A stretch of DNA of 50,781 bases, taken from the IMG/VR virus record IMGVR_UViG_3300045988_030121, positions 1-50,781 of that record. One strand, given 5' to 3'. Made by a program: the position numbers and the translations under genes. This DNA is from a virus. The notes beneath the pieces were generated by a model. It saw only the letters and a program-made list of their open reading frames with translations, did no database searches and was not told the DNA's origin. This document shows positions 3,069 to 19,407 of the stretch, one piece after another. Position 1 is the stretch's first letter; each line of letters starts with the position of its first letter.

Positions 3069-3785
3069 TTAAATTCTTCTTCTGTCTTTGCCGGTAATCT
3101 CAAAGTAATTGCACATTTCATTGAGCCTTGACGCGCATCTTTCCCCATACCTCTGCACAAACCGTTCATGAGCGAATGGGATGTTGGATGTTATCAATGT
3201 CATCTTGTCAGTGCAATCCCCACGAAATTCAAGTATAGCCCGCATCGGTTGCACCCTGTTGCCCATGAACACGGATTCTTCCGGTTCCGCGCCCAAATCC
3301 TGAAACCCGATGATTGGCATGGTCTTGTATTGCTGGATTTCCCCGGCCGTGGTGAAGCCGTCACAAATGACATCCGTGCGCACATTCTTCCATCGAAGCC
3401 CAATTGTGTTGCGGCCGAATGTGATTTGCGGGTTGTCCACAAGGCAATAAGCCGTCATGATGTCCAAGCACCAGGACTTGCCCGTCCCCGTGTTTCCGGC
3501 AATGTAGATGCCTTTGTGCAAATCACCCTGAATCCTTTGTTTCGTGACCGGGTGCAAGCACTCCATTGATGAATCACCATGCACCCACCTGATGATGTTC
3601 TCATAAGTGAAGCAGTTTTCATCATCAATCCGGAAGTTCGGATTGCGGGACTTTCCGAGGGCTTCCACCACATTCATGGCGATTTCCATCTTGAAAGGCA
3701 AGTATTGATACCGGCGAATGGTCGGCAAGAAGCCGTATTCATGCACTTTTCCGAGCAATTCGGCAATGTTTACTGAGTTGGCCAT
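3069..3785 (-). CDS. DnaC/IstB-like AAA+ ATPase (putative helicase loader)
   Basis: Walker A IAGNTGTGKSW. Walker-B-like IIGFQDLGAE. 238 aa, located in the replication module. Confidence 0.7.
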   Translation of the reverse strand: MANSVNIAELLGKVHEYGFLPTIRRYQYLPFKMEIAMNVVEALGKSRNPNFRIDDENCFTYENIIRWVHGDSSMECLHPVTKQRIQGDLHKGIYIAGNTGTGKSWCLDIMTAYCLVDNPQITFGRNTIGLRWKNVRTDVICDGFTTAGEIQQYKTMPIIGFQDLGAEPEESVFMGNRVQPMRAILEFRGDCTDKMTLITSNIPFAHERFVQRYGERCASRLNEMCNYFEITGKDRRRI

Positions 3786-4555
3786 ATATCATTCACTTGG
3801 GTTTGTTTCTTGCCCTGTGCGGGCTTGTTGTCATAATTGCCCTCATATACTTTCATCCAATTCTGCGGGTTCTTGAAAATCCAATCAAATGATGCCCATG
3901 AGCCGTTGCGCATAAAATCGGAGTTCTGCATCTTCGTGAACACGGTTTCAAGGACGGCCATGTCACCTTTCATTTCTTCGATGCGGGACTTGATTTTCTT
4001 TTTCCGTTCATCGGTCAGCTTCATGATGCGCGGGAAAGAAATGCAGATGCGGTGATACATGGAAACAATTTCATCGAAATTCACCTTTTCATGCGAATCC
4101 GCATTATCTGATTTATCAGATATTAAAATATCTTTTTCTTTCCTTTCCTTTTCTTTTATAGCATTGCAAGTGTCTGAATTTTCATTGCAATTGCTCTGCA
4201 TTTGCATTTGTCCCCTTGATTTCCAAGAACTTATGGCGGCACTTTTTCGCTTTTCGGAAATCTCTTTCCGGCGAGAAAGCCGGGAATTTACGGATTCCGA
4301 CCAAAAGTTTTCACCATCATTTTGGAACAAATTGAAGTCTTTTATGACACTTTCCACATCTTTGCTTTCAATGTGCATAGCAAATGCAATGCTTTTGCAT
4401 TGTGCAAGAGACAACACCCCTCCCTGCTCATAAAGCTGTTCGATGATGCACCAATAAACACCGATTCCGGCAACGCCCTTTTCCATCAAAAGGGATTGCA
4501 ATTTCGGGTCATTCCGCGCATTGAAATCGTGTTGAAAATAAAATGTCTCTTTCAT
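3770..4555 (-). CDS. DUF4373 (Lin1244/Lin1753-like) replication-associated protein
   Basis: The N-terminus MKETFYFQHDFNARNDPKLQSLLMEKGVAGIGVYWCIIEQLYEQGG matches the DUF4373 pattern from memory. Adjacent to the DnaC-like gene. Confidence 0.6.
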   Translation of the reverse strand: MKETFYFQHDFNARNDPKLQSLLMEKGVAGIGVYWCIIEQLYEQGGVLSLAQCKSIAFAMHIESKDVESVIKDFNLFQNDGENFWSESVNSRLSRRKEISEKRKSAAISSWKSRGQMQMQSNCNENSDTCNAIKEKERKEKDILISDKSDNADSHEKVNFDEIVSMYHRICISFPRIMKLTDERKKKIKSRIEEMKGDMAVLETVFTKMQNSDFMRNGSWASFDWIFKNPQNWMKVYEGNYDNKPAQGKKQTQVNDIWPTQ

Positions 4556-4571
4556 TGTTGCGAGTGTCTGA

Positions 4572-4605
4572 AAAGCCCCTCAAATGCCCAAATTCAAGGG
4601 GCTTT
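4572..4605 (-). terminator. Hairpin (9-bp stem AAAGCCCCT/AGGGGCTTT, 16-nt loop) between two early genes; possible attenuator or terminator
   Basis: Inverted repeat read directly from the sequence. The 3' arm ends in a short U run on either strand. Confidence 0.35.
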
Positions 4606-4620
4606 CGGTGATACTTGATT

Positions 4621-5364
4621 TTAGATTTCGATGATGGCGATGTCTGGTGCAATCTTCTTGATTGCTTCAAGCTGTGCATCAATCTCCGTGGCCTTGATTT
4701 CCTCATACAAGGCCGCCGCATCGGGCGAAATCAGGATGAAAGAGACATCACGCCCGGAAATCTTGGCAAAGGTCTCCACTTCGATGGATTCCGGCCGGCC
4801 GCCTTTCAGGACGGGGATGTTGATGGTGAATGATTCCGGCAGATTCGAATCCACTATCTGTGAAAAGTTGTCGGTTCTGTCACCGTTTTCGCGGGCGGGT
4901 TTCGCAATGGAATTGTTCACTGTTGCGACAAAGTTCATGAGGGTCGAAACCAATTTCATGTTCTCTGTCCTGTCCGCAAAGAAAGTGCGGTTCATTTTCA
5001 GGAACATGCCCAATTCCGTGGGTGTCCACACAACGGAAGAATCATTGATTCCAAATTCAAGGAACTTGGGATTGAAGGCCAATGCACCCTTGACCGTGCC
5101 GCGCTTGTATTCATCCGCTTCATTAGTGATAAGGGTGATTTCCGCCTTGTCCCTGTCTACAAGGATATGGCAATTCTTCTGCGAGAATTGACATGCTTCC
5201 ACCCTCTTTTCAAGCCATTCATTGACGGCTCCGATTGTTCCGGAAATGTTGATTTTGACCGGGGCTTTTTCATCAAGCACTTTGGCGGCCGGGGCTTCAC
5301 GCAAGGTGATTTCCACATTGTCCACGCCGGCGGGAAGATTGAAGATTGTTTTTTCTGTTTCCAT
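4621..5364 (-). CDS. Hypothetical early protein
   Basis: 247-aa ORF with an ATG start, co-oriented and tightly packed in the early operon. No motif recognised. Confidence 0.6.
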   Translation of the reverse strand: METEKTIFNLPAGVDNVEITLREAPAAKVLDEKAPVKINISGTIGAVNEWLEKRVEACQFSQKNCHILVDRDKAEITLITNEADEYKRGTVKGALAFNPKFLEFGINDSSVVWTPTELGMFLKMNRTFFADRTENMKLVSTLMNFVATVNNSIAKPARENGDRTDNFSQIVDSNLPESFTINIPVLKGGRPESIEVETFAKISGRDVSFILISPDAAALYEEIKATEIDAQLEAIKKIAPDIAIIEI

Positions 5365-5379
5365 GATGGTAAATGTTTG

Positions 5380-5835
5380 TTAGTTTGCGATTGCTTGTTT
5401 CCTGTTGTTGTCGGTGTTGGTCTTTCGAGCCAGCTTGAAAAGGTTGCCTTGCATTTCATCGGCCGTGGCCGGTCTGACTTCAATGAGGTTTCCATCCGCA
5501 TTGTAGAACCCGGTTTCCCCGGCTTCCTGGTCGGTAATCCTGTAACATTCTTCCGTCACAAGTTCGGCTTTCGCCTTGATGTTGCCCACAAGAATGTTCT
5601 TTTCCTCATGCAATGGTTTCAAGTCACCCTTGAACACTTCCATTGCAGCTTTCTTCTTGGCTTCGATGTCCGAAATCTTGATTGAGACATTCGCCAAATC
5701 CTCTTTCTTGCCCTGCAATTCGGCTGCGGAATAAGGCTTCATATAAGTCTTTTCCACCACTTCATCCGCATTATCAGACAAGAAGATTTTTCGCAAATTG
5801 ACATCCTTGATGTCCTGACCAATGTATTTTTCCAT
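5380..5835 (-). CDS. Hypothetical early protein (coiled-coil-like, charged)
   Basis: 151-aa ORF with an ATG start, in the early operon. Confidence 0.6.
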   Translation of the reverse strand: MEKYIGQDIKDVNLRKIFLSDNADEVVEKTYMKPYSAAELQGKKEDLANVSIKISDIEAKKKAAMEVFKGDLKPLHEEKNILVGNIKAKAELVTEECYRITDQEAGETGFYNADGNLIEVRPATADEMQGNLFKLARKTNTDNNRKQAIAN

Positions 5836-5847
5836 AACGCTTTCGGT

Positions 5848-6366
5848 TTAATCAAGGAACATTTCATTGTACAAGGCCGTGAATGTCTCTCCGAATTTGC
5901 GAGCTGTCGCGGACGATTTGAAGCAAAGCCGAGAACCGAAATTCGCATACGTATACGAAGCCGTGCTAGCCGTATGCGCATACACGAAGCCCGCATGGGG
6001 GGATTTATAGACAAACCACGGATAATATTTGTATTGGCTTGAATTTGAGAAATCAGGCACAAAGCCGTCAATCTTGTTCCATGCCTTTGCGATGATGGCC
6101 AGCTTATAGAAAGCCACGGCGGATTTTGCGATTCCATTGTCTCCTTTCAAGGCAATCGCGCTTTCGGGGATTCCGAGAAACTTGCAAGCATCGCCGAAAG
6201 TGAGGGGATAATCATCAATGTCTTTTTCCTCACACACCACATCGAAAACGGTATCAATCTGGTTGTCATCAATTGCTTCTGTCACAAATTCCGATGCTTC
6301 GACTTTCGTGTCAAATGTTCCGATGATGGAATCATCACTTTTGAGTTTTACGATAAATTTTTTCAT
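5848..6366 (-). CDS. Small DGR variable protein (remote second target carrying VR2)
   Basis: 172 aa with no signal peptide. The C-terminal part ...PHAGFVYAHTASTASYTYANFGSRLCF... is encoded by a 76-77-bp copy of the template repeat that differs only at template adenines. Confidence 0.8.
   Translation of the reverse strand: MKKFIVKLKSDDSIIGTFDTKVEASEFVTEAIDDNQIDTVFDVVCEEKDIDDYPLTFGDACKFLGIPESAIALKGDNGIAKSAVAFYKLAIIAKAWNKIDGFVPDFSNSSQYKYYPWFVYKSPHAGFVYAHTASTASYTYANFGSRLCFKSSATARKFGETFTALYNEMFLD
5921..5997 (-). repeat. DGR variable repeat 2 (VR2), homologous to TR 17902-17978
   Basis: Hand alignment is ungapped with 10 mismatches. All 10 are at plus-strand T of TR, that is A in the sense strand. 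Homology is lost beyond 5997. Confidence 0.85.
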
Positions 6367-6378
6367 TGTTGCGTTAAA

Positions 6379-7122
6379 TTAAAATGGTGTTTTGTCAAAT
6401 GGAATTGTCATCCCCGGTTCTGCGACATGGACGGTCTTGCCGGTTGCTTCCGCGATGCCGTCCTGAAATTCCCTTGCATTGGAATTGCCATCGGAAAGGT
6501 GAATCAAGACAATGTTGTTCACGGCTGTCAGGTCATTGGCTTCCATGATGGCCCTGCATGTATCAAAACTGCAATGGCTTCGCAAGGTGCGGTTCTTGAC
6601 CCTTTCCGGCAACTTTCCCGCCCTCACATTGGCTTCCAAGATGTCTTTCCGGAAATTGCATTCGATAAGAATGTTGTTCAAGCCCTGAAAGGTGTATTCA
6701 AGAAAGTATGTGTCGGTGGCGAACAAGGCCGTTCCCATTTCCGGGTGATGAATGAGAAATCCGAAAGGCTCACGGGCATCATGTTCAGTGTTGAACGGAT
6801 GCACGGTGAATGAGCCAATCTTATACGAATGCAATTCTTGCATCAAGTGGACACGCCGGGCATTGGTGATTCCAAGTTCCGCGGCCGTCCCGTTGGACAT
6901 CCAGCAATCAATGCCCGATTCAAGGCACTTTCCGGCTTGTTTGGCGTGGTCTTGATGCTCATGGCTTATCAAGCATCCAACCACCCCCGATATGTCGAAA
7001 TTAAGGGCTTTTTTGATGTCCTTGAAAGACACGCCGCATTCCACCATCAGGATTTCACCGTCCGATGCCCGGAACAAGTAACAATTGCCTTTTGAGGATG
7101 AACCCAAGATTTGCAAATTCAT
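6379..7122 (-). CDS. MBL-fold metallo-hydrolase (putative recombination-associated nuclease)
   Basis: HxHxDH motif LISHEHQDHAK. 247 aa, next to recT. Confidence 0.85.
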   Translation of the reverse strand: MNLQILGSSSKGNCYLFRASDGEILMVECGVSFKDIKKALNFDISGVVGCLISHEHQDHAKQAGKCLESGIDCWMSNGTAAELGITNARRVHLMQELHSYKIGSFTVHPFNTEHDAREPFGFLIHHPEMGTALFATDTYFLEYTFQGLNNILIECNFRKDILEANVRAGKLPERVKNRTLRSHCSFDTCRAIMEANDLTAVNNIVLIHLSDGNSNAREFQDGIAEATGKTVHVAEPGMTIPFDKTPF

Positions 7123-7145
7123 GGCCTTTCGGATTTCATTGGTGA

Positions 7146-7898
7146 TTAGAATCCCGGCCCTGCGGGGCCTGCGTTTTCAGCGGGCGCGGGCTGTTCGGGG
7201 GCCTGTGAAATCTCAACCGGGGCGGCCGTTGCATCCTGTGCGGGGATGCTGATGGACTTCTTGTTGCCCTTGTTCCTGATTTCTTCATCCACCTGTTCCT
7301 GATAGTCCACGGTGGTTTGTTCCTCTTGGGTGTACATTGCGCCAAGTTGTGCGGGGAATGCTTCACGAAGCGCTTGCACCTTTGCAATCTTGGAAATCAT
7401 CGTGGACGGCTTTTCTTTCCACAAGGATTGCTTCTTGTCATATTCGGCAAGGCTCACTTTGGACACATATGGGAATTTCTTGTCGGAACGGTACACCTTT
7501 GCCCATCCGCCCAAGAGTGTATCACCGGGGGCAAGGAAACAACCCTCGACTTCAATGACCTCTTTGCCACGAAGCACGATGATGCCGGCTTGCAGACCAT
7601 CGTAATTCTCACAAGCATCGGCCCGCTTCAAGAGGGCTTCTTTTGACACAACCATCTGCGCCGGCTGATTGCCGTACTTGATAAGGTAGGCTTCATTCAG
7701 GAACGGATTGAGTTGATTGAACTGACAGATGGAAATGAACTGCACGATGTCGGCATCTTCCACATTGGTTGCCCCTTTGGTAAGGTAGTTGCGCACTATT
7801 GTGCGGCTCAATGTAACATCCTGACCCGCGGATTTGTAGGTCACGGCTTTCTGATTCTCAACGGCGGAAACCACCGCCACTTCATTGTTGTTTGCCAT
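7146..7898 (-). CDS. recT: RecT-family single-strand annealing recombinase
   Basis: QFISICQFNQLNPFLNEAYLIKYG...GGWAKVYR...KSLWKEKPSTMISKIAKVQALREAFP are typical RecT blocks. Confidence 0.9.
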   Translation of the reverse strand: MANNNEVAVVSAVENQKAVTYKSAGQDVTLSRTIVRNYLTKGATNVEDADIVQFISICQFNQLNPFLNEAYLIKYGNQPAQMVVSKEALLKRADACENYDGLQAGIIVLRGKEVIEVEGCFLAPGDTLLGGWAKVYRSDKKFPYVSKVSLAEYDKKQSLWKEKPSTMISKIAKVQALREAFPAQLGAMYTQEEQTTVDYQEQVDEEIRNKGNKKSISIPAQDATAAPVEISQAPEQPAPAENAGPAGPGF

Positions 7899-8017: not shown

Positions 8018-9979
8018 TTATTCCACGATGATTTCCTTGTCCCTTGTCACCACAAGATTGATGATTTGCGAATCTGTGCGGATAAGTTCATTCACGGATT
8101 CCCGGTTGTCAATAAAGATGGGGGCGCATACATCGAAATGCTTGCAAAGGGTGTTGATGATGTCCAGCCCGGCATTGACTTGGGATGCGGAATTTGCAGA
8201 CCAATAAGGGATGCCGTCACAAAGAGGGGTGCAAACCTCATAGATGTTGCCCTCGATTGTTGTATCATACAACTTGAACTTCACGAAATGGAAGTGGCTG
8301 TTGATGCGGCTTTCGCATTCCTCAATCTTGACACGGATGAAGTCTTGGATGGCGATTTCTTCACCCTCAATGCCCGCGATTTCTTGGGCAAGGCGCTTTT
8401 CCTCTTGGGCAAGGCGAGCGATTTCGGCATCTGCCTTTGCGATGGCATCACGGGCGGCAAGGCGCTTCACGCAATTCTCCTTTTCAACACCCAAATCGGC
8501 CTTTTTCTGCGACAAGGCGGATGTGTCGGGGCTTCCGGCATTGCCGTTGCTCATGGTGGCTTCGATGGCGGAAATCTTCTTGTCAATTTCAGCGCATTCG
8601 GGGACATCAGCTTCCGTGACGGTTCTTGCCTTTGTTTCCACGATGGCGGCAAGGTCGGCTTCTTTCGCCTTGATTTCCGCATCAAGGTCGGCTTCCGCGC
8701 CCCTGGTCTCTTTGAGTTTTGCATCAATAGCCGCGATGTCGGCTTTCAGTGCATTGAGCCTTTCAACATTGGCCTTTCCATCTCTTGTGATGGATGCAAG
8801 GATTGCATTCTTGGATGCGTTGAATTTCTCGCGGGCGGCCGCCTTTGCATCTTCCGGCAATTCCTGATGGCATACCGGGCAAATGTCGCTTCCATCATAG
8901 GTTTTGGCATTCTCCACACCCCAAGACTTGCGGCCATCAGTGATTTTCACTTCAACATATTGTGCCGTCTTTTCCTTTTCGGCCTTTTCGTTTTCAAGGG
9001 TGTTGATTGACCGGCGCACCGAATCCAATTCATTCTTCTTGGAGCGGATTTCGGCCGCAAGTTCACGCCGGGACTGATTGGCCCTGAATGCCGCATCATT
9101 CTCATTGGATTGAGCATTGAAAACCAACTTTTGCTTTTCGGATTTGAGGGCATTGACTTCATCAGCCTTTCGCCTTTCTTCCTCATAGGCCGCACGAATG
9201 GCCTTTGTGATGTCCGCGATTTGGCCATCAACGGCCGCGATGTCCGCATCAATTTCGGCAATCCGCTTTTCGATGGCCGCGAAATCATCCGCCGCCGGCT
9301 TCATCTTTGTTGTCTGGTCAATACGCGGGGAAATCTCCGCAAGATTCTGCTTCAAAAGGCGCTTTTTGGCCGCAATTTCGCGCTTGAAGTCAGACAATGA
9401 CTTGCCGCTTATCTTGTCAAGCAATGTGGCAAATTCGGGCCTTTTTTCAACGATTTCGGCATCCGTCAATGTCTGTTCAAGGAAAAAGAGAGTGTCACGG
9501 CGCAATTGCATGTCCATGTTCACGAAGAAAGCCGGGTTTGTGAGCATCTTGAAAAGCGATTCATCAATGATGCTTGATACCCTCTTGGCATATTCGGTGA
9601 CATTCACCGGCACATCATTCCACCAACAATCAGTGCGATTGCCTTTGAAAACCCTTTCGGCCTTGCCGCGGGGCTTCACCCATTCTTCGACCAATGACCG
9701 TTTCAGGGTAATTTCTTCACCATTCACAATGATGATTGCGGAGACCGTGGCATCCACATTGTGAAGTTCCTGACCATTCACGCGGGTTTTGATTTCATAA
9801 TCCTTGCGGTCGGCCGAATCCTTGCCGAAAAGAAGCCAAATGAATGCATCGAAGTGGCGGGATTTTCCGAGACCGTTTGCACCCTTGATGGTGGTGACAT
9901 CGGAATTGAATGCCGTTGTCCTTTCCTTTTCCCCCTTGAAATTGGTAAGGGTGATTGATTTTAAGATAACTTGCTTCAT
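8018..9979 (-). CDS. SMC/Rad50/SbcC-like AAA ATPase with a long coiled coil
   Basis: Walker A GANGLGKS near the N-terminus. Long Ala/Glu/Lys-rich coiled coil. C-terminal IFIDNRESV is Walker B/D-loop-like. The first ATG is at 9979; the track start at 10015 is a TTG. Confidence 0.8.
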   Translation of the reverse strand: MKQVILKSITLTNFKGEKERTTAFNSDVTTIKGANGLGKSRHFDAFIWLLFGKDSADRKDYEIKTRVNGQELHNVDATVSAIIIVNGEEITLKRSLVEEWVKPRGKAERVFKGNRTDCWWNDVPVNVTEYAKRVSSIIDESLFKMLTNPAFFVNMDMQLRRDTLFFLEQTLTDAEIVEKRPEFATLLDKISGKSLSDFKREIAAKKRLLKQNLAEISPRIDQTTKMKPAADDFAAIEKRIAEIDADIAAVDGQIADITKAIRAAYEEERRKADEVNALKSEKQKLVFNAQSNENDAAFRANQSRRELAAEIRSKKNELDSVRRSINTLENEKAEKEKTAQYVEVKITDGRKSWGVENAKTYDGSDICPVCHQELPEDAKAAAREKFNASKNAILASITRDGKANVERLNALKADIAAIDAKLKETRGAEADLDAEIKAKEADLAAIVETKARTVTEADVPECAEIDKKISAIEATMSNGNAGSPDTSALSQKKADLGVEKENCVKRLAARDAIAKADAEIARLAQEEKRLAQEIAGIEGEEIAIQDFIRVKIEECESRINSHFHFVKFKLYDTTIEGNIYEVCTPLCDGIPYWSANSASQVNAGLDIINTLCKHFDVCAPIFIDNRESVNELIRTDSQIINLVVTRDKEIIVE

Positions 9980-9990
9980 ATAGATTTTTG

Positions 9991-10272
9991 TTAAATAGAT
10001 TTGTGTTCTTTCCAAAGTTCCACCGCCCTGTCTGCATCAACTATTATCAGGCGTTTGTCCTGCATGATGGCATCCTTTATCACGCCACTTTTCTTGATTC
10101 GGTTTGCCGTTGCAATCGAGCATCCAAAAACCGATGCGATGCCGGCGATGCCATACACAAGGCGTTTTTCCTTTTCGGGTTCCGTCCTGGTCGCTTTCAT
10201 GGTGTTCTCAATGAGTTCCACAAGCTGTGAGACGGTAAGGTCAATGATGCGTGTTTCGGGGGTGTAATTCAT
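9991..10272 (-). CDS. DUF3853-like helix-turn-helix protein (excisionase-like fold)
   Basis: YGIAGIASVFGCSIATANRIKKSGVIKDAIMQDKRLIIVDADRAVEL resembles Bacteroidales DUF3853 proteins from memory. Confidence 0.55.
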   Translation of the reverse strand: MNYTPETRIIDLTVSQLVELIENTMKATRTEPEKEKRLVYGIAGIASVFGCSIATANRIKKSGVIKDAIMQDKRLIIVDADRAVELWKEHKSI

Positions 10273-12318: not shown

Positions 12319-12609
12319 ATGAAAAAAGCAATCAACCCGGAAGCGCTGGAAATCCAAAGGCGATTTTTCCAAGCCCTTGACCTCGCAATCAGTTTGGGCA
12401 AGGTCGGGAGCCTGACGGCCTTTTGTGATGACCACAAGTTGAACCGCACGAAATATTCCCGGATAAGAAGTACACTTGACAAACCAATGGATGAAAGGCT
12501 TTACAAGGTCATTGATATTGATGCATTATCTTCGATTTGCAAGGACTTTGGCGTGTCGGCTGATTGGCTGCTCACGGGACGGGGAAAGATGCTTAAAACG
12601 GATAAATAA
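12319..12609 (+). CDS. HTH (XRE-like) protein immediately upstream of the integrase
   Basis: LSSICKDFGVSADWLLTGRGKM has the typical XRE C-terminal helix and the WLLTG motif. Its stop codon overlaps the integrase ATG. Confidence 0.6.
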   Translation: MKKAINPEALEIQRRFFQALDLAISLGKVGSLTAFCDDHKLNRTKYSRIRSTLDKPMDERLYKVIDIDALSSICKDFGVSADWLLTGRGKMLKTDK

Positions 12610-13895
12610 TGCACATTCAAAGGGGAATCAAGTTCATTTTGCACAAGAGGAATCCGAATCAGGCGCAAAACCTCGGAATCCGCTTGCGTGTCACATTGCG
12701 GGGCAAGACACCCATTGATTTTCCCCTCGGATTCTCAACCGACATTGAGAATTGGGATGCATCTGAACAAATGGCCATTGGTGGGGATAACATGGCCGCA
12801 ATCAACAGAACCATCAAGGAATGGCGCAACACCCTTGATGAAATCTTTGCACGGTATGAGTTGATTGAGAAACGCACCCCCGAACCTGATGAATTGAAAG
12901 ACTTGTTCAATGACACCATCGGACGGCAAACCGACTTGAAGAAAGAGTTGGACAAGCTGGAAGCCGAACAAAACCCCGGATTCTTCAAGGTGTTCGACAT
13001 CTTCATGATTAAGACCGGCAAGCAAAACCAATGGATGGAATCAACATTCAAGAAGTTCCGCACCATCAAGCGCACATTGAGGGACTATGACAAGAAACTT
13101 TCTTTCGACACCATCACCCATGACAAGATGCAAGGGTACATGGAAAGCCTTTTGAAAGCCGGCAAGAAAAACACCACCGTTGCCAAAGACATTTCATTTG
13201 TCCGCTGGTTCCTGCATTGGGCATATCTCAATGGATATTACAACGGGAATCTTCATGAGACATTCAAGCCCAAGTTGAAAGGCGCGGACGGGGCTTCAAA
13301 GGAAATCATATTCCTGACAAGGGATGAAGTGAACAAGCTGGAAGAATGGCAATTCAAGCCCGAACAAAAAGCCCTTGAAAGGGTGCGTGATGTGTTCTTG
13401 TTCTGTTGCTTCACGGGGCTTCGATATTCGGATGTGGCAAAGCTGAAAAAGGCCGATGTCAAACAAGGGTACATTGATGTTGTCACCCAAAAGACCAATG
13501 ACAGCTTGAAGATTGAGTTGAACAGGCATTCACAAGCAATCATTGACAAGTACAAGGATGCCGGCGCATGGGATGGCCTTGCCTTGCCGGTAATCTCAAA
13601 CCAAAAGATGAATGATGCCCTGAAAGACTTGGGCAAGTTGTGCGGGATTGATGACCCCGTGCGGATTGTCTATTTCAAGGGGAATGAAAGGTGTGAGGAT
13701 GTCAAGCCGAAATATGAGGTCTTGACAACCCATTGCGCCCGGCGCACCTTTGTCGTGTCGGCCCTGCAATTGGGCATCCCCTCGGAAGTCATCATGCGTT
13801 GGACGGGGCATTCATCATTCAAGGCCATGAAACCATATTACAAAATCGTGGATGAAACGAAAGAGAAAGCAATGACAAAATTCGATGATTTTTGA
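12609..13895 (+). CDS. int: Tyrosine recombinase / phage integrase (Bacteroidales type)
   Basis: 428 aa. Catalytic blocks are CFTGLRYSD (Arg), THCARRTF (H-x-x-R) and WTGHSS...KPYYKI (His and Tyr). Confidence 0.92.
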   Translation: MHIQRGIKFILHKRNPNQAQNLGIRLRVTLRGKTPIDFPLGFSTDIENWDASEQMAIGGDNMAAINRTIKEWRNTLDEIFARYELIEKRTPEPDELKDLFNDTIGRQTDLKKELDKLEAEQNPGFFKVFDIFMIKTGKQNQWMESTFKKFRTIKRTLRDYDKKLSFDTITHDKMQGYMESLLKAGKKNTTVAKDISFVRWFLHWAYLNGYYNGNLHETFKPKLKGADGASKEIIFLTRDEVNKLEEWQFKPEQKALERVRDVFLFCCFTGLRYSDVAKLKKADVKQGYIDVVTQKTNDSLKIELNRHSQAIIDKYKDAGAWDGLALPVISNQKMNDALKDLGKLCGIDDPVRIVYFKGNERCEDVKPKYEVLTTHCARRTFVVSALQLGIPSEVIMRWTGHSSFKAMKPYYKIVDETKEKAMTKFDDF

Positions 13896-13896
13896 T

Positions 13897-13920
13897 GTAC
13901 ACGAATTTGTACACGAATTT
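13897..13920 (+). repeat. Tandem 12-mer (GTACACGAATTT x2), left arm-type repeat
   Basis: Exact tandem duplication. 21 nt recur at 14082-14102. Confidence 0.8.
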
Positions 13921-14081
13921 GGGTATGATTTTTGATATTATATGATATTTGTTAAATCGGAGAAAATGGGCTATGATATTGACAATGAAATATTTGACAC
14001 TTTATGATAGTGTGCAATATCATTCGTTAAAGTCCGCCCATCTCCACAACCTCAATTGATTTTCAATTGGTTACATCATCG

Positions 14082-14102
14082 GTACACGAATTTGTACACG
14101 AA
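14082..14102 (+). repeat. GTACACGAATTTGTACACGAA, right arm-type repeat
   Basis: Identical to 13897-13917. Confidence 0.8.
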
Positions 14103-14103
14103 A

Positions 14104-14127
14104 ACACCTCTTTTCGGGGTGTTTTTT
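14104..14127 (+). terminator. Rho-independent terminator (stem ACACCTC/GGGGTGT, loop TTTTC, T5)
   Basis: Hairpin followed by TTTTT, read directly from the sequence. Lies downstream of the int operon. Confidence 0.65.
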
Positions 14128-14174
14128 CCATTTGTAACCCCATTCGTAAACCATCCGTAATTCACCACCATTTA

Positions 14175-14206
14175 CAAAAGAAGCCGGGGCAACAAACCCG
14201 GCTTCT
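14175..14206 (-). terminator. Rho-independent terminator of the lysis/DGR transcription unit
   Basis: On the minus strand: 10-bp stem AGAAGCCGGG/CCCGGCTTCT, 8-nt loop, then TTTTG. It sits 62 nt after the stop of the last lysis gene. Confidence 0.65.
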
Positions 14207-14267
14207 GACATTGTACCGTGGCGCAACACCACGGCTCGCAACAATGTTTTGCAAAGATAGCATTTTT

Positions 14268-14867
14268 TCAGGAAACAATCTTGCGTACCCCCGCAAGGAT
14301 TCTTTTGATGAAATTGAGAATCGGAACCCGTTTGAGGTACATAAGCACCACCACCGCAAGGGCAAGAATGTAAAAGGCATATTTCAGGTGATTGGGCTTC
14401 GGGGCTTCCGTGACCTTTTCTTGGGATGAATCATTGACGGCGGCCGCCACCGATGTGTGACTCTCGGATTCCTCGCTTTTCTCCGTTTCGCGGCTTTCCC
14501 CCTTTTCTTCCGTCATGGTCTCAATGACCGTTTGGCGGACTGATTGGATTGAACCTTTGCCCTTGACCTTGCCGCCACCCGGCAATTCAAGTTCGATGGG
14601 GGCATTGTTGTCATTCTCCACCGGAACATTGGCGGTTGTGTCGGACTGCTTGCCCGCATCGGGAAAAAAGGTGATTTCCGTGATGGTCACTTTCCCGGAT
14701 TCGGTTTTGGTTGTGTCGATGAATATATCTTTGGAATCGGTCTTGACGGCTTCCACATGGGTGCTGTCACGGCTTTCCGAATGGTCTTGTTTCACCACGC
14801 GCCGGGAAACACCGCACCCGGACATCATGAGGATGACAAGAGCCGCCATGAATACATGTCTTTTCAT
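14268..14867 (-). CDS. Lipoprotein with a C-terminal TM helix; unimolecular spanin candidate
   Basis: MKRHVFMAALVILMMSGCG is a lipobox signal. The C-terminal YAFYILALAVVVLMYL is TM-like. It is the last gene of the holin-amidase cassette. ATG at 14867; the track start is a TTG. Confidence 0.5.
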   Translation of the reverse strand: MKRHVFMAALVILMMSGCGVSRRVVKQDHSESRDSTHVEAVKTDSKDIFIDTTKTESGKVTITEITFFPDAGKQSDTTANVPVENDNNAPIELELPGGGKVKGKGSIQSVRQTVIETMTEEKGESRETEKSEESESHTSVAAAVNDSSQEKVTEAPKPNHLKYAFYILALAVVVLMYLKRVPILNFIKRILAGVRKIVS

Positions 14868-15986: not shown

Positions 15987-16358
15987 TTAGGTAAATTGAA
16001 AACACTTTCCGACCTTGACGATTGTAGTGTCCAATGGATAAATGCTGATGCCCTTTGATTCCGCTTCTTGGATGGCCGCAATCAAGTTGTCTGACCCGGT
16101 GAAACATGACCGCCTTTCGCCACATGGCGTTCCATCCGCATTCTTCTTGTAGAAATCCCCGTTTGCATCCGGTTCATCCTCAAATGAAGCAAGAACCACT
16201 TGCATCTGCATCCTCAATCCCGATGTGTTCTTACCCGGAAAATTTGACGGCTTTATGAGGGTCTTTTCAATGAGAATCCTTTTTCCAAAGAGTTCATCCA
16301 TGTCAATACCCTTGCCGATGATTACATCGGAAGTGATGCCAAGTTCACTAAATCGCAT
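15987..16358 (-). CDS. Hypothetical protein
   Basis: 123-aa ORF with an ATG start, between the RT and the holin. Confidence 0.55.
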   Translation of the reverse strand: MRFSELGITSDVIIGKGIDMDELFGKRILIEKTLIKPSNFPGKNTSGLRMQMQVVLASFEDEPDANGDFYKKNADGTPCGERRSCFTGSDNLIAAIQEAESKGISIYPLDTTIVKVGKCFQFT

Positions 16359-16372
16359 AGGCCGTCCATGTT

Positions 16373-16756
16373 TTAGTTCAACATTTCAATGATGGCCGCA
16401 TCCACATCCTCGGTGAATGCCAAAAATTCCTTGTATGCTTCCACGGCGGCATCATCCTGACGGATGGCCAAGATGTGCTTGTTGTAGGAGTTCACAAGGT
16501 CAAATTCGGCCGATTCATCAATGACGGAACGGATGAATGCCCGCTTGATATTCGCCTTTGTGGGGGCATCCCAAATGCGGATTTCCCGGCAATTGTACCC
16601 CACCAATTCGGCTTTCTTCTTGCCCTCCGGCACTTCCGTTTCCTCGGTGATGTTGAAACGGACGATGGTTGAACCGTCATTGTCTCTTTCGATGGCAAGC
16701 GGTCGGCCATTCACCACATCATAATGGGCGTTTGGCTCTAACGAATTTAATCTCAT
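16373..16756 (-). CDS. Hypothetical acidic protein immediately downstream of the DGR RT
   Basis: 127-aa ORF. Its ATG at 16756 overlaps the RT 3' end by 38 nt. Confidence 0.5.
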   Translation of the reverse strand: MRLNSLEPNAHYDVVNGRPLAIERDNDGSTIVRFNITEETEVPEGKKKAELVGYNCREIRIWDAPTKANIKRAFIRSVIDESAEFDLVNSYNKHILAIRQDDAAVEAYKEFLAFTEDVDAAIIEMLN

Positions 16757-17750
16757 AAGGAAATGATTTAGAAAGTTTATTCAAAAGATTGATTGAGTTG
16801 CAGTATTTGCACCAACCCCACCACGAACATATTTGCTGCTTGTATTTCTCCATTGTAGGCACAATCTTTCTCTTGTTGAGAATCGCCACCCGGCGGCAAA
16901 GTGCCTGTTTGATGGACTTGCGCAACCTTGTATGAGTGTGACGGAACACATAACCAACGAAGTCAATTCCACGCGCATCAACCGGGAACACCTGATAATT
17001 CTTCTTGACTTTCAATTTCAGATTGTCACGAAGATAGGCGCGGATGTCATGCATGAGTGAATGCAAGAAATCCTTGTCATCGGATAGAATCACGATGTCA
17101 TCGGCATACCGGGAATAATGCTTGACACCTTTCCTTTCTTTCAACCAATGGTCGAAATATGCCAAATACAAATTGGCAAAATATTGGGAAAGGTAGTTGC
17201 CGATGGGGACACCCGCCGGCACGGAATCAATGATTTCATCAAGCAATGCCAAAAGCCTTTCATCTTTCAGCTTCCGGCGCACGATGCCTTTCAGGATGTC
17301 ATGGTCAATGGATGGATAGAACTTGCGGATGTCCATCTTCAAGCAATAGACCGTTCCTTTCGGGTCGGTTTTCAAGGCATGGCGCACCGCCCTTGCACAA
17401 GCATGGATTCCCCGGTTCTTGATGCAAGAATAGGTGTTGCCGTTGAAAATTCCCACCCAAATCGGCTCCATCACATTCATGATGGCATGATGCAAGATTC
17501 TGTCAGGATAGTAAGGCAAACGGAAAATCTGCCTTTCTTTCGGCTCAAAGATTGTGAAGATATGATATTTTGAAGTGTGAAATGTACCGTTCACCAATTC
17601 CTCATGCAAATGCATCAGGTTCGCATCCCGGTTCTTGTCATGGACACGGACACCATAAGACTTCAACTTGCCCTTGCGGGCTTTGTCATCCGCAAGGCGC
17701 AAATTTTCAAGGCTTATGACCTTATCAAAAAGGTTTGCAATTCGCTTCAT
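16719..17750 (-). CDS. DGR-type reverse transcriptase
   Basis: 343 aa. RT motifs include YPSIDH, the DGR hallmark PIGNYLSQYFANLYL, and the catalytic YADD. Sits immediately 3' of the TR. Confidence 0.93.
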   Translation of the reverse strand: MKRIANLFDKVISLENLRLADDKARKGKLKSYGVRVHDKNRDANLMHLHEELVNGTFHTSKYHIFTIFEPKERQIFRLPYYPDRILHHAIMNVMEPIWVGIFNGNTYSCIKNRGIHACARAVRHALKTDPKGTVYCLKMDIRKFYPSIDHDILKGIVRRKLKDERLLALLDEIIDSVPAGVPIGNYLSQYFANLYLAYFDHWLKERKGVKHYSRYADDIVILSDDKDFLHSLMHDIRAYLRDNLKLKVKKNYQVFPVDARGIDFVGYVFRHTHTRLRKSIKQALCRRVAILNKRKIVPTMEKYKQQICSWWGWCKYCNSINLLNKLSKSFPYEIKFVRAKRPL

Positions 17751-17902
17751 TGGTTTGCTTGAATAATAGGCTTCTTCATGGCCTTATGGCATTACCAAAG
17801 CCGTTTTTCGGTATGTAATCTTTTGCCGTTGATTGCTCAACTCATTCAACCCCCGATGGGCCGTTTTTGTGGCAAGGTTTCCGGTATGCAATAAATTTTA
17901 CA

Positions 17903-18016
17903 AGCATAGCTGAGAACCGATATTCGCATTCGTATTCGAAGCCGTGTTATTCGTATTCGCATACACGAAGCCCGCATTCGCACCATTATTCGCATTACCG
18001 CTGAACAACACGCCGC
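17903..18016 (-). repeat. DGR template repeat (TR), 114 bp
   Basis: Non-coding. In the VR frame it reads GVLFSGNANNGANAGFVYANTNNTASNTNANIGSQLC, which is rich in AAY codons. Homologous to VR1 (offset +214) and to VR2. Confidence 0.9.
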
Positions 18017-18090
18017 CGACACCGGACAACCCTTTCTTTTTCATTTCACACCCAAAATGTCACATTTCGATTTGTGCGCTTCGCGCCGAT

Positions 18091-19407
18091 TTATGCGGCC
18101 GCCCGATTTGCGGAATAGCAAAGCCGAGAACCGAAATACGCACCCGTATACGAAGCCGCGCGAGACGTATTCGCAGACACGAAGCCCGCAGACCCACCAT
18201 AATACGCAGCACCGCCGAACAACACGCCGCGTTCACTTACTCCACTATCGGGAATAGATGTGTAGAAGTAATCGCAGAAATATGTGGTTGAACCGCCACC
18301 AACGGCCGATGGCATGATTTCGCCATGTTCTCCCAAGCATATTGCCTTTACATATCCATCATTCCTCGGAAGTTCACCGCGCAACTCATAGTTTACGATT
18401 CCTGAACTTGTGAAGCTGGAAACATCATCGCAAACATAGAAAAGCGACTTGCCACCATCAGCTTCCGACTGAATCAGGCACTTGCAACCATCCGTCCACT
18501 TCCAAATGTGTCCGAAAGGATTTTCCACGCCACGATAAGACGGCACATGCTCAACGGTGGTTGTGGAATCATATTCGGTCGGCATGGTGTAATCCACGAT
18601 GCCCGTGTGATTGCCAAGAGAGTTCGTGACACCGCAAGGCACAACGGGATGATAACCATTAAATGCATTCCACTTGGAAGAATTGAGGTTCGTGACACCA
18701 TTGCCCAAACCGCCCTGACGATGGCCATTCGCATCAAGTTCGGCATTGAACTCCTTTTGCGAATTGAATGTGGCGTATTCCACGGCAAAGAGCCACCACA
18801 GCTTGCGATGGATGTGGTAGGTGTTGCAATTCCAATTCACGGAGCCGCGATTGCGGGCATAGGCCCTGAAATTGGTAAGCGATATTTCCGTTGCCGGCAT
18901 CCCAAGCATTGAACGGTAAGTGCCATCCCATGCCGAATTGTTGCCACCTCCACGATAATCCGCATCGGTGTTCACCACGGCCGCAAGTTTGTTCGTGCTT
19001 CTCTGCACGGTCGCTTCCACGGCCGAAACGAAGTCCCTGCCCCAAAGGGTGAATCCCGGAAGCGGGTATTCGGACATCAGGCAACGCGATTTGTCACCAT
19101 CGGTTTCAAAGCGGACATACATGTCCGGCAAATCAACCATGTACTGACCATCGGAGCCGTCAAGATTGGCGGCCGCGCCATTGTCCCGTTTCGTGGAATC
19201 ATTGGCATGAAGATAGTAATTGACCGTGCCGTCATCTTTGAGGATGCACCGGCGCATCAGGCTTTGAAGCGGGAGAGACTGATGCAATTCATCCTTGCCG
19301 ATTCGTGTCGGGTTCGGATTGGAGACGGTCGCATCCCACTCAATGCCATAATAGTAATCGTATGCGAATTTCGGCTTCGTATCACCGATTCCAATGACAA
19401 GTCCCAT
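18091..19407 (-). CDS. DGR target 1: tail receptor-binding protein with a variable C-terminal (C-type-lectin/FGE-like) domain
   Basis: 438 aa, located at the distal end of the tail module. The C-terminus GVLFGGAAYYGGSAGFVSANTSRAASYTGAYFGSRLCYSANRAAA is encoded by VR1. Confidence 0.88.
   Translation of the reverse strand: MGLVIGIGDTKPKFAYDYYYGIEWDATVSNPNPTRIGKDELHQSLPLQSLMRRCILKDDGTVNYYLHANDSTKRDNGAAANLDGSDGQYMVDLPDMYVRFETDGDKSRCLMSEYPLPGFTLWGRDFVSAVEATVQRSTNKLAAVVNTDADYRGGGNNSAWDGTYRSMLGMPATEISLTNFRAYARNRGSVNWNCNTYHIHRKLWWLFAVEYATFNSQKEFNAELDANGHRQGGLGNGVTNLNSSKWNAFNGYHPVVPCGVTNSLGNHTGIVDYTMPTEYDSTTTVEHVPSYRGVENPFGHIWKWTDGCKCLIQSEADGGKSLFYVCDDVSSFTSSGIVNYELRGELPRNDGYVKAICLGEHGEIMPSAVGGGSTTYFCDYFYTSIPDSGVSERGVLFGGAAYYGGSAGFVSANTSRAASYTGAYFGSRLCYSANRAAA
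18117..18230 (-). repeat. DGR variable repeat 1 (VR1)
   Basis: Ungapped 114-bp alignment to TR with 21 mismatches. 20 are at TR adenines (20 of 28 adenines changed). 1 is a C->G change at 17980/18194. Confidence 0.9.

Follow-up and report, generated by a model that had tools for sequence, protein, structure and literature searches.

The gene under study lies at 5848..6366 on the minus strand of the window, i.e. of the whole analysed stretch of 50,781 nt, and encodes a protein of 172 amino acids (19.2 kDa, pI 5.0), hereafter VR2p; the ORF list agrees with the frame and length given in an earlier annotation made from the letters alone (the sequence-only reading). Upstream of it, on the same strand, Pfam and PHROG place an MBL-fold hydrolase (6379-7122), the annealase RecT (7146-7898) and an SbcC-like ATPase (8018-10015). 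The downstream neighbours (3069..5835, minus strand) include p151 (phrog_12688), p247 (phrog_11501), a Lin1244_N/DnaD-like protein (3770-4555) and a DnaC/DnaI-like loader (3069-3785). Gaps of 12 nt separate the VR2p gene from the MBL and p151 genes, and in approximately 76 of 102 related loci it is found between recombination (SbcC-like/annealase/MBL) and replication genes, as expected from its earlier assignment to an early recombination/replication block. Sigma-70 promoters and terminators predicted near the gene were no more numerous than in shuffled sequence, and an Rfam scan returned no match. Against GenBank phages, megablast with region 5000-7500 yielded no match, and tblastn gave only two weak ones.

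The phage is a temperate gut phage of Bacteroidales. Its tyrosine integrase, recognised by Pfam families, is encoded at 12609..13895 (plus strand) with attP just downstream, and host junctions were observed in L004 and L272. The IMG/VR contigs are mostly in prophage form, with the integrase at one end.

The DGR cassette comprises three parts. The reverse transcriptase (RT) of 343 amino acids (16719..17750, minus strand; RVT_1, E = 7e-17; phrog_1423, E = 4e-121) contains the motifs IGNYLSQ and YADD; [LIV]GxxxSQ and YxDD motifs are marks of DGR RTs. The non-coding template repeat TR (17902..18021, minus strand) lies 152 nt upstream of the RT gene and has an A-rich AAY codon design. The first variable repeat, VR1 (18116..18235, minus strand), forms the 3' end of a gene for a protein of 438 amino acids (18091..19407; phrog_5302 'tail protein', E = 9e-119). 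VR1 aligns with TR over 119 nt, where 20 of 24 mismatches are at adenines and three of the four others at the 5' edge. The spacer between TR and RT harbours a structured element (17820..17876, minus strand), in which an outer helix CTTGCC/GGCAAAAG encloses two hairpins; RNAalifold on 24 lineages gave 16 pairs, 9 of them with compensatory changes. Avd, which is common among DGRs but not universal, had no Pfam match in five small ORFs around the cassette, and NCBIfam and PADLOC were empty for two ORFs downstream of RT. In Table S3 of Dahlman et al. 2025 (PMC12629997), at least, Avd is entered as 'NA' for Bacteroides DGR phages.

The second variable repeat and its elements

The 3' 77 nt of TR are repeated, without gaps, inside the VR2p gene at 5921..5997 (minus strand), where they encode amino acids 124-149. 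The computed alignment of 5921-5997 with TR 17902-17978 (offset -11981) has 67/77 identities and 0 gaps, and all 10 mismatches are at sense-strand adenines of TR (17907, 17911, 17921, 17930, 17936, 17947, 17950, 17951, 17957 and 17978). The software thus reproduced exactly the ungapped alignment and the ten mismatches that the sequence-only reading had listed by hand; the tabulation of mismatch classes that it proposed showed neither a gap nor a mismatch at a non-adenine template position, and its translations of TR and VR2 were correct on recomputation. With 21 adenines in the 77-nt TR segment, the hypergeometric probability of all ten mismatches falling on adenines is 3.2e-7. When both strands of the entire window were scanned with this 77-mer, TR scored 77, VR2 67 and VR1 61; the next best score was 40 and the background 19.4 ± 4.0, which puts VR2 about 12 SD above chance. 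A third VR is thus absent from the window, and the central claim, that the same DGR has a second VR at a remote site, is upheld by ten adenine mismatches out of ten in the sole extra copy besides VR1. The stated separation of VR2 and TR, 12 kb, applies to the circular form of the genome; in the integrated prophage they are about 39 kb apart, at opposite ends, since attP just downstream of the integrase splits the genome there.

The diversified part of VR2 spans 5940..5997 (minus strand) and holds 19 TR-adenine sites in 12 codons (amino acids 124, 129, 131-135, 138-140, 142 and 143 in the codon table). The earlier count of 21 adenine-derived positions is right as a count of adenines, but two of them, 17911 and 17907, are fixed TR/VR differences and are not diversified. 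By arithmetic, the 12 randomised codons (amino acids 124-143) allow roughly 1e10-1e11 protein variants. At 18-20 TR-adenine sites, all four bases occur in VR1 (68 unique sequences) and VR2 (92 unique sequences) alike, the remaining sites being fixed in both repeats. The non-adenine sites of VR2 are invariant or co-vary with TR in the per-site table of the 92 unique VR2, and protein alignments agree with this.

The 3' end of VR2 (5921..5939, minus strand) reads TCGGTTCTCGGCTTTGCTT, its TR counterpart being ...CTCAGCTATGCTT. Two fixed TR-to-VR differences are located here, A to G and A to T, the second of which is silent; both are present in 68/68 VR1, while among the 92 unique VR2 the G is found in 88 and the T in 92. 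By analogy with BPP-1 (PMC3240598), we infer for this end and its TR counterpart the roles of IMH and IMH*, respectively. Near the other end lies an adenine-free block, TGCGGGCTTCGTGT (5982..5995, minus strand), with the same letters in TR (17963-17976) and VR1 (18177-18190); its length was correctly given before as 14 nt, although the string printed with it had 13 letters. In the 92 unique VR2, from all lineages, VR2/TR homology begins at or just 5' of this block, which fits the earlier proposal of an upstream homology anchor; judged by analogy, the block is a probable anchor for 5' cDNA integration. Within the coding sequence, 10 nt downstream of VR2, there is an inverted repeat, GCGA-CAGC-TCGC (5899..5910, minus strand), a possible target-recognition hairpin. 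No conserved hairpin, including the GC-rich hairpin or cruciform with a GRNA loop expected within about 24 bp of a VR, was common to 63 flanks downstream of VR2, a coding region; VR1 flanks carry GC hairpins with GAA, GAAA or GTAA loops.

Variation of VR2 among related phages

To relate each VR2 to its own template, separate VR2p and RT loci of IMG/VR phages were paired by contig name. In 22/22 contigs with both a VR2p homologue and an RT, VR2 matched the cognate TR over about 75 nt, and 265 of the 295 VR2/TR mismatches were at adenines; the remaining ones lay mostly past the 3' end of the repeat or in its IMH-like last bases. Lineage-specific non-adenine bases of TR were mirrored in the cognate VR2 (e.g. 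TGGTCG, CCGACG, GCATCG and GCGGCG), which shows continuing transfer from TR to VR2. The substitution spectra of the two repeats are near-identical (VR1: A188/T88/G64/C53; VR2: A191/T91/G55/C56). Homologous phages had been suggested as a check for variation at the same VR2 positions, and the comparison revealed adenine-site variation in the 92 unique VR2. The closest relative, L090, shows 97.8% identity with the window over 8.3 kb of flanks and 85.7% in VR2, with 11/11 VR2 differences at TR-adenine sites. Likewise, 28 cluster members are near-identical outside amino acids 110-143, whereas each of the 28 has different VR2 codons.

These data bear directly on the idea that VR2 is an inactive relic of an old duplication or fragment of the tail VR. 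Such a history would agree with the extent of VR2, which covers only the 3' two-thirds of TR, with the decayed or non-VR-like loops of some distant family members, and with the identity of VR2 in at least eight samples of the strain. In these samples of this exact strain, the consensus sequences of VR1, TR and VR2 are all nucleotide-identical, hence diversification is visible only between strains. A relic would hardly differ between near-identical genomes at TR-adenine sites only, nor receive the non-adenine changes of TR in every lineage, nor keep the reading frame and the IMH-like end intact in 92/92 unique VR2. We consider this explanation largely refuted and highly improbable: by its pattern of variation, VR2 is a real and recently active DGR target.

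A further question is whether VR1 and VR2 change together. Their identity at adenine sites was 0.39 within a genome and 0.37 between genomes (permutation p = 0.16), so the earlier conclusion that the two repeats were diversified independently stands, while the argument offered for it, that their substitutions differ, was too simple. In the window itself, VR1 and VR2 agree in their base at 6 of the 9 sites mutated in both, two of these six being the fixed IMH-like differences. A shared VR1/VR2 specificity in each genome was considered and rejected, within-genome likeness being no higher; because own-genome pairs are no more alike than cross-genome ones, a shared ligand is not indicated.

The same comparison weighs against DNA-level gene conversion or homologous recombination, without reverse transcription, as the process that keeps VR2 similar to VR1 or TR. 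The three copies do have identical blocks of 14-19 nt in common, on which recombination could act. It would be expected, however, to homogenise VR1 and VR2, yet no within-genome excess of similarity is seen; it would not give rise to differences confined to adenines, and the two fixed 3' differences from TR have never been overwritten. This account is scarcely credible.

Taken together, the sequence data make it very probable that the single DGR of the phage serves VR2 in trans, as a genuine second target. In the mechanism that we propose, RT (16719-17750) would copy TR RNA (17902-18021 plus the structured spacer) into cDNA, misincorporating opposite template adenines. The cDNA would replace VR1 in the tail protein and, independently, its 3' 58-77 nt would replace VR2 (5921-5997) in the small early-operon protein. 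Targeting would probably proceed via the 3' element TCGGTTCTCGGCTTTGC, common to both VRs, whose two fixed differences from TR would give directionality in the manner of IMH versus IMH*, and the 5' junction would probably be resolved in the adenine-free block. The cis elements in this scheme are inferred.

VR2p and its possible function

VR2p begins with a beta-beta-alpha-beta domain (amino acids 1-49), which an acidic linker joins to a C-terminal module of approximately 120 amino acids. This module carries VR2, and the variable codons lie in a loop of a conserved display scaffold, flanked by its conserved motifs PWFxY and SRLCFK. The protein is a member of phrog_11581, of unknown function (E = 3.4e-23, amino acids 46-119); the tail target matches this profile in its VR part only, and hhalign could align VR2p with the tail target only over the VR and 9 amino acids. 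Homologues are numerous: 1640 at 90% clustering, and 2769 clusters at 50% identity, 1102 of them with E <= 1e-10. As mentioned, the variable loop is decayed or non-VR-like in some distant members.

The C-type-lectin/FGE-like fold anticipated by the sequence-only reading was not found. Neither the window protein nor 78 family members had any Pfam match at E <= 1, whether to a C-type-lectin, FGE-sulfatase or DUF1566 domain or to another, a PDB profile search with VR2p found nothing, and Foldseek with two AF2 models (pLDDT 83 and 75.5) gave no match of any kind in the PDB at E < 1, a comparison that is weak because the VR segment itself was modelled at a pLDDT of only 53-59. In BFVD, Foldseek matched only uncharacterised gut-phage proteins, and the N-terminal domain matched small DUF7336-like phage proteins.

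A signal peptide or TM helix was found neither before nor here (maximum KD19 = 1.05). From the position of the gene and the missing export signals, a hypothesis regarding function may be derived: VR2p would be a cytoplasmic, early-expressed hypervariable binder acting in phage-host or phage-phage conflict. We put this forward tentatively, with rather less than even confidence, although an intracellular binding role as such is plausible from the sequence. In phage lambda, Gam accompanies Bet and Exo; by analogy, our best guess is that VR2p might neutralise, for example, a variable host defence or nuclease. PADLOC, Pfam and NCBIfam were empty for VR2p, p151 and p247 with respect to defence or anti-defence homology.

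Alternatively, VR2p could be a virion-associated or lysis-released binder, an accessory receptor-binding or decoration protein that serves host-range adaptation and is encoded outside the structural module. Its variable loop is Tyr/Ser/Asn-rich like that of the tail protein, the TR being common to both, and in the literature both proteins diversified by two-target phage DGRs have been interpreted as receptor-binding (tentaclins, PMC10743442). Such a role is nevertheless unlikely: the gene sits between recombination and replication genes in about 76/102 loci and directly after the Cro-like gene in BT-TP2, neither a PHROG structural category nor a structural homologue was found for VR2p, and VR1 and VR2 of one genome, which resemble each other no more than a cross-genome pair does, do not suggest a shared ligand.

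VR2p might also be a prophage/host defence or superinfection-exclusion factor, a hypervariable sensor of the proteins of competing phages. Conflict-linked targets are known at least among the cellular DGRs treated in PMC10907252, the BT-TP2 homologue adjoins the lysogeny switch, and the same VR2 is stably held in many lysogen samples. On the other hand, the gene runs in the same direction as lytic recombination and replication genes, with which it is tightly packed, and is directed away from the integrase/repressor side, and VR2p has no effector domain and no PADLOC match. Such a role appears quite unlikely to us, and an intracellular binder deployed early in infection remains the reading we prefer.

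A broader interpretation, which we regard as rather doubtful, is that phrog_11581 is a very large, previously undescribed family that provides a third DGR display scaffold, neither C-type lectin nor Ig. Its PWFxY-SRLCFK loop may be randomised by whichever DGR the phage carries, and the family may serve temperate Bacteroidales phages inside the cell much as an antibody would, by binding variable targets in host defence or takeover. The scaffold may have captured only the 3' part of the tail-protein VR together with the targeting signal.

Comparison with known DGR systems

To our knowledge, DGRs are the only natural targeted protein hypermutation system known in prokaryotes, and those of phages are understood almost entirely as receptor-specificity switches. 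An abundant, conserved, signal-less early-operon family diversified by the same cassette suggests that a recognition molecule for use inside the cell evolves in phages as well. The novelty implied by the sequence-only reading was too high, however: distal second DGR targets were described in Bacteroidota gut phages for Quimbyvirus ORF 80/84 (Benler et al. 2021, PMC8008677), and Dahlman et al. 2025 (PMC12629997) added Saffi, LoVEphage, Shia and Wilby, four prophage species with two VRs; in these Bacteroidota phages the second distal VRs already sit in non-structural, counter-defence-associated genes. VR2 of the window phage is an addition to this published class of second, non-structural targets. 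To this class our work adds evidence of active target maintenance in many lineages, the definition of a conserved scaffold and a variable loop, and a putative minimal natural remote target composed of a 19-nt 3' element and a 14-nt anchor.

Quimbyvirus and the four prophages are, like the window phage (which has a methylase at 485-1561), temperate phages with Bacteroidales hosts. Their published descriptions give genomes of 46-114 kb and place them in other lineages. A C-type lectin domain was described for the Quimbyvirus target, whereas no lectin fold was detectable in VR2p. In the window phage, VR2 corresponds to no more than 77 nt at the 3' end of TR, and the target gene lies within a recombination/replication string.

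By the rules of the Bordetella BPP-1 DGR (Mtd/VR, TR, Avd, bRT), any sequence can become a target, in trans, if it has an IMH, an element downstream of it and upstream homology of 8 bp or more (PMC3240598, Guo et al. 2011). The window phage shares with it the adenine-specific TR-to-VR transfer, a VR near the 3' end of the ORF, fixed 3' differences between VR and TR that would give directionality, the sufficiency of a short upstream homology and the possibility of targets in trans. It differs in having no detected Avd and two targets, the second apparently no surface protein; the (GC)14 tract of BPP-1 is replaced by a 3' element of 17-19 nt that is only moderately GC-rich, and no conserved GRNA hairpin was found downstream of VR2. 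The tentaclin DGRs of gut phages (Tikunov et al. 2023, PMC10743442) also use one TR for two different proteins, and there too the second VR is the shorter one, with 20-21 of 25-28 adenines usable, but both targets lie inside the DGR cassette and are interpreted as receptor-binding proteins with C-lec domains, while the second target of the window phage is 12 kb off, in the early region.

A cultured counterpart is BT-TP2/BT-TP1 (PQ571279; PMC12694917), which is temperate in B. thetaiotaomicron and has an RT, a TR (40633-40744) and a VR1 in the tail protein gp44, the latter being the only DGR target named in its paper (PMC12694917). Its TR differs in sequence, and VR2 there extends over all 112 nt of TR. 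We found this VR2 (record positions 122-233), which differs from TR only at adenines, in a VR2p homologue whose gene is unannotated and split by the record ends; it directly follows the Cro-like HTH, next to the cI and integrase genes. BT-TP2 in B. thetaiotaomicron thus offers a cultured, genetically tractable model for a target gene that had been overlooked there.

A remote variable repeat and its template

The cassette of the diversity-generating retroelement (DGR) lies on the minus strand and comprises the reverse transcriptase (RT) gene (16719-17750; RVT_1, phrog_1423, with IGNYLSQ and YADD seen in the translation), the template repeat (TR, ~18021-17902) and a variable repeat (VR1, 18235-18116) at the 3' end of the gene of a 438-aa tail protein (18091-19407, minus strand; phrog_5302). 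A second repeat, VR2 (5921-5997, minus strand), is carried by the gene of a 172-aa protein, VR2p (5848..6366, minus strand). In the computed alignment VR2 matches TR 17902-17978 without gaps and with 67/77 identities, and all ten mismatches fall on sense-strand adenines of TR (hypergeometric P = 3.2e-7, with 21 A in 77 nt). The software alignment thus reproduced that of the sequence-only reading, including the exact positions of the ten mismatches and their restriction to adenines. When the whole window was scanned on both strands with the 77 nt, the matches were TR, VR2 (67/77) and VR1 (61/77), the best further score being 40 (background, 19.4 ± 4.0). VR1 alone matches the 5' 43 nt of TR, and the window holds exactly two variable repeats.

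IMG/VR loci were fetched for homologues of VR2p and for RT, and 22 contigs had both. In all 22, a match of ~75 nt to the cognate TR was found within the VR2p gene, which strongly supports the earlier reading of VR2 as a remote DGR variable repeat. TR adenines accounted for 265 of the 295 mismatches between VR2 and TR; the others were mostly past the 3' end of the repeat or in its IMH-like last bases (IMH and IMH* being the 3' elements of VR and TR in Bordetella phage BPP-1). Lineage-specific non-A bases of TR (for example in TGGTCG, CCGACG, GCATCG and GCGGCG) recurred in VR2 of the same genome, for which continuing transfer from TR to VR2 is the sole explanation.

A per-site table of 68 unique TR/VR1 pairs and 92 unique VR2 sequences showed TR mirrored by VR2 over -74 to 0. 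All four bases were present at 18-20 TR-A sites, in VR1 and in VR2, and the sites other than these diversified ones were fixed throughout. The spectra at TR-A sites were practically the same (VR1, A188/T88/G64/C53; VR2, A191/T91/G55/C56). Between the window and its closest IMG/VR relative, the flanks are 97.8% identical (8.3 kb), yet VR2 is only 85.7% identical, and 11/11 of its differences are at TR-A positions. Similarly, 28 VR2p members from two 90% clusters are near-identical except at aa 110-143, and all 28 are mutually distinct at aa 129, 131-135, 138-140 and 142-143, positions that coincide exactly with the adenine-containing codons of TR. Because of these results, with their adenine-only differences between strains and TR-mirrored non-A bases, the possibility that VR2 is an inactive relic was rejected for the lineage, and we consider VR2 very probably to be a DGR target. 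VR1, TR and VR2 were nucleotide-identical in contigs from at least eight samples of the window strain, so diversification of VR2 is documented between strains, not inside the population of this strain.

Two further observations concern the region near the 5' edge of VR2. TR position -69 (17973, G in the window TR), the silent third base of an Ala codon, is A in 47/68 TR lineages; the position is G in 67/68 VR1 and 88/92 VR2, with the adjacent A sites diversified. Such a never-variable silent adenine is not predicted by random adenine mutagenesis. Just upstream of VR2, 6001-6042 (VR2p aa 109-112 and 121-123) shows a few discrete haplotypes among near-identical proteins (SSQY..KSP, ADQY..KTQ, SDQF..KST, SDQY..ETK) with no correspondence to TR adenines; this resembles variation by lineage or by recombination, or else selection on residues beside the variable loop.

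Elements at the repeat edges and candidate accessory factors

The 3' end reads TCGGTTCTCGGCTTTGC in both variable repeats and TCGGTTCTCAGCTATGC in TR. The two differences, of which one is silent, are fixed (68/68 VR1; in VR2, G in 88/92 and T in 92/92), and therefore at most 19 adenines are diversified, fewer than the 21 adenine-derived positions counted in the sequence-only reading, two of which are these fixed TR/VR differences. They resemble the directionality-giving IMH/IMH* distinction of BPP-1 (PMC3240598). At the opposite edge, the proposed 14-nt adenine-free block TGCGGGCTTCGTGT (5982-5995, minus strand) was indeed located at the 5' start of the VR2/TR homology, after one edge codon (aa 124) that precedes the block and has limited NNT-type variation. 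In BPP-1, a target requires IMH together with a hairpin downstream and a minimum of 8 bp of homology upstream, the upstream sequence being dispensable (PMC3240598); since these rules need nothing more, a partial repeat would be mechanistically sufficient as a target.

Downstream of VR2, an inverted repeat GCGA-CAGC-TCGC lies in coding sequence (5899-5910, minus strand), and GCGCG-CGC-CGCGC is found in some lineages; no structure common to the 63 flanks, and hence no conserved hairpin, was found in this coding region. The 3' flank of VR1 (18040-18116, minus strand; related loci L170-L249) contains one to five copies of CAAATCG(A/G), placed both in varied reading frames and in non-coding DNA. 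They usually lie beside GC-rich hairpins (loop GAA, GAAA or GTAA) or within the loop itself. The hairpin in the window is GCGC-GAA-GCGC (18076-18086). CAAATCG also lies directly 3' of VR2. The motif and hairpin region downstream of VR1 is a candidate target-recognition element.

In the same loci, the TR-RT spacer just downstream of TR (17820-17876, minus strand) has a conserved GGAAACCTTGCCACAAAAAC motif and a three-helix structure of two hairpins inside an outer helix CTTGCC/GGCAAAAG, with compensatory changes in 9/16 pairs across 24 lineages. It matched no Rfam family and is probably the DGR RNA element recognised by RT. No Avd homologue was found near the cassette, in agreement with 'Avd NA' for Bacteroides DGR phages in Table S3 of Dahlman et al. 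(PMC12629997). For this reason, two conserved small ORFs between RT and holin (15987-16358 and 16373-16756, minus strand; 123 and 127 aa), without Pfam, NCBIfam or PADLOC matches, are candidates for an alternative accessory factor. The latter ORF overlaps the 3' end of the RT gene.

The VR2p family and its genomic setting

VR2p (19.2 kDa, pI 5.0) lacks hydrophobic segments (maximum KD19 = 1.05), which bears out its description as cytoplasmic-looking and free of TM helices. It matches phrog_11581 (unknown function, E = 3e-23). Clustering at 90% gave 1640 homologues, and at 50% identity there were 2769 clusters, 1102 of them with E <= 1e-10. The AF2 model (pLDDT 83) has an N-terminal beta-beta-alpha-beta domain, helices 57-64 and 77-99 and two C-terminal helices, while aa 100-150, including the variable repeat, are poorly defined (pLDDT ~57); a second model, of a 206-aa relative, has the same layout. 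Neither model matched a PDB structure (best E > 1), and BFVD returned only uncharacterised gut-phage proteins, the N-terminal domain matching small DUF7336-like phage proteins. PDB profile searches with VR2p were empty, and Pfam searches of 78 family members gave no lectin, FGE or DUF1566 domain; the C-type-lectin/FGE-like fold suggested earlier was thus not found. Since hhalign of VR2p with the tail target (C-terminal 220 aa) aligned only 38 columns, namely the variable repeat and nine residues downstream, the two proteins have the diversified cassette in common but no detectable common scaffold.

The family core is ...AWNxxDxFxPDFSxxxQxKxFPWFxY-[loop]-SRLCFK(S/T)xxRAxQFGxxFxxLxN. The scaffold has exchangeable N-terminal domains. 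Of 146 diverse representatives, about half have a VR-like loop; some have a full-length repeat there (P0159, BT-TP2), and in others the loop is clearly unlike a VR. The scaffold therefore occurs both with DGR coupling and without it, never coupled or coupling lost. In P0207, P0228, P0258, P0070, L271 and L133 the loop between PWFxY and RLCFK is non-VR-like, shortened or decayed, and L093 has a truncated ORF of the family.

The window corresponds, in rotated form, to the 50,781-bp circular contig ERZ27229681 k119_316334 (ENA), whose record ends fall inside the intact tail-target ORF (18868/18869). The phage is temperate and has a tyrosine integrase (12609-13895); attP lies just past the integrase gene (13895-14268), where L004 and L272 have host DNA; with host junctions directly after the integrase, VR2 and TR are ~39 kb apart in the prophage. 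Gaps of 12 nt separate the VR2p gene from the upstream MBL-fold hydrolase gene and from the downstream p151 (phrog_12688). The order SbcC-like ATPase, annealase (RecT or a replacement), MBL hydrolase, VR2p, p151, p247 (phrog_11501), DnaD-like protein, DnaC-like loader and antirepressor is kept in ~76/102 related loci. A few kb downstream lie genes for a DNA methylase and for an RNase T-like exonuclease. The ATPase (8018-10015, minus strand) also matches LmuB, the Lamassu SMC-like protein (PADLOC, E = 1e-19), probably through the common SMC/Rad50 fold and not a defence role. Relatives come from assemblies of Prevotella, Alloprevotella, Bacteroides, Alistipes, Muribaculaceae and Tannerellaceae.

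Because of the early-operon position, the lack of export signals and the place of the homologue in cultured phage BT-TP2 directly after a Cro-like gene, we tentatively favour VR2p as a cytoplasmic, early-expressed binder in conflict with the host or other phages; the intracellular ligand proposed earlier seems plausible. A virion-associated or lysis-released binder is unlikely, and an exclusion factor expressed in the lysogen somewhat more so. VR1 and VR2 were no more alike within genomes (0.39) than between them (0.37, p = 0.16), and so a ligand common to both targets is not indicated.

Comparison with known two-target systems

Distal second DGR targets are already known, as they were described by Benler et al. 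2021 in a defence-related island of Quimbyvirus (non-structural and, by the authors' statement, without precedent at the time; PMC8008677) and by Dahlman et al. 2025 in four induced Bacteroidota prophage species, distal from RT and near counter-defence genes (PMC12629997). Two-target cassettes with a shorter second repeat were described by Tikunov et al. 2023 (PMC10743442). Remote targets were explicitly beyond detection in Roux et al. 2021 (PMC8144416). The window therefore holds a further case of a known phenomenon. In BT-TP2 (PQ571279; TR 40633-40744), whose published sole DGR target is gp44 (PMC12694917), which carries VR1, we found a full-length 112-nt VR2 (122-233) that differs from TR at adenines only, in an unannotated VR2p homologue across the record ends (~44890-45224 + 1-330), a terminally repeated region. 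In contrast, VR2 of the window is partial, covering 77 nt of TR; the present case is further marked by a scaffold that is not recognisably a lectin fold, by the fixed position of the gene within the recombination/replication operon and by the very large size of the family.
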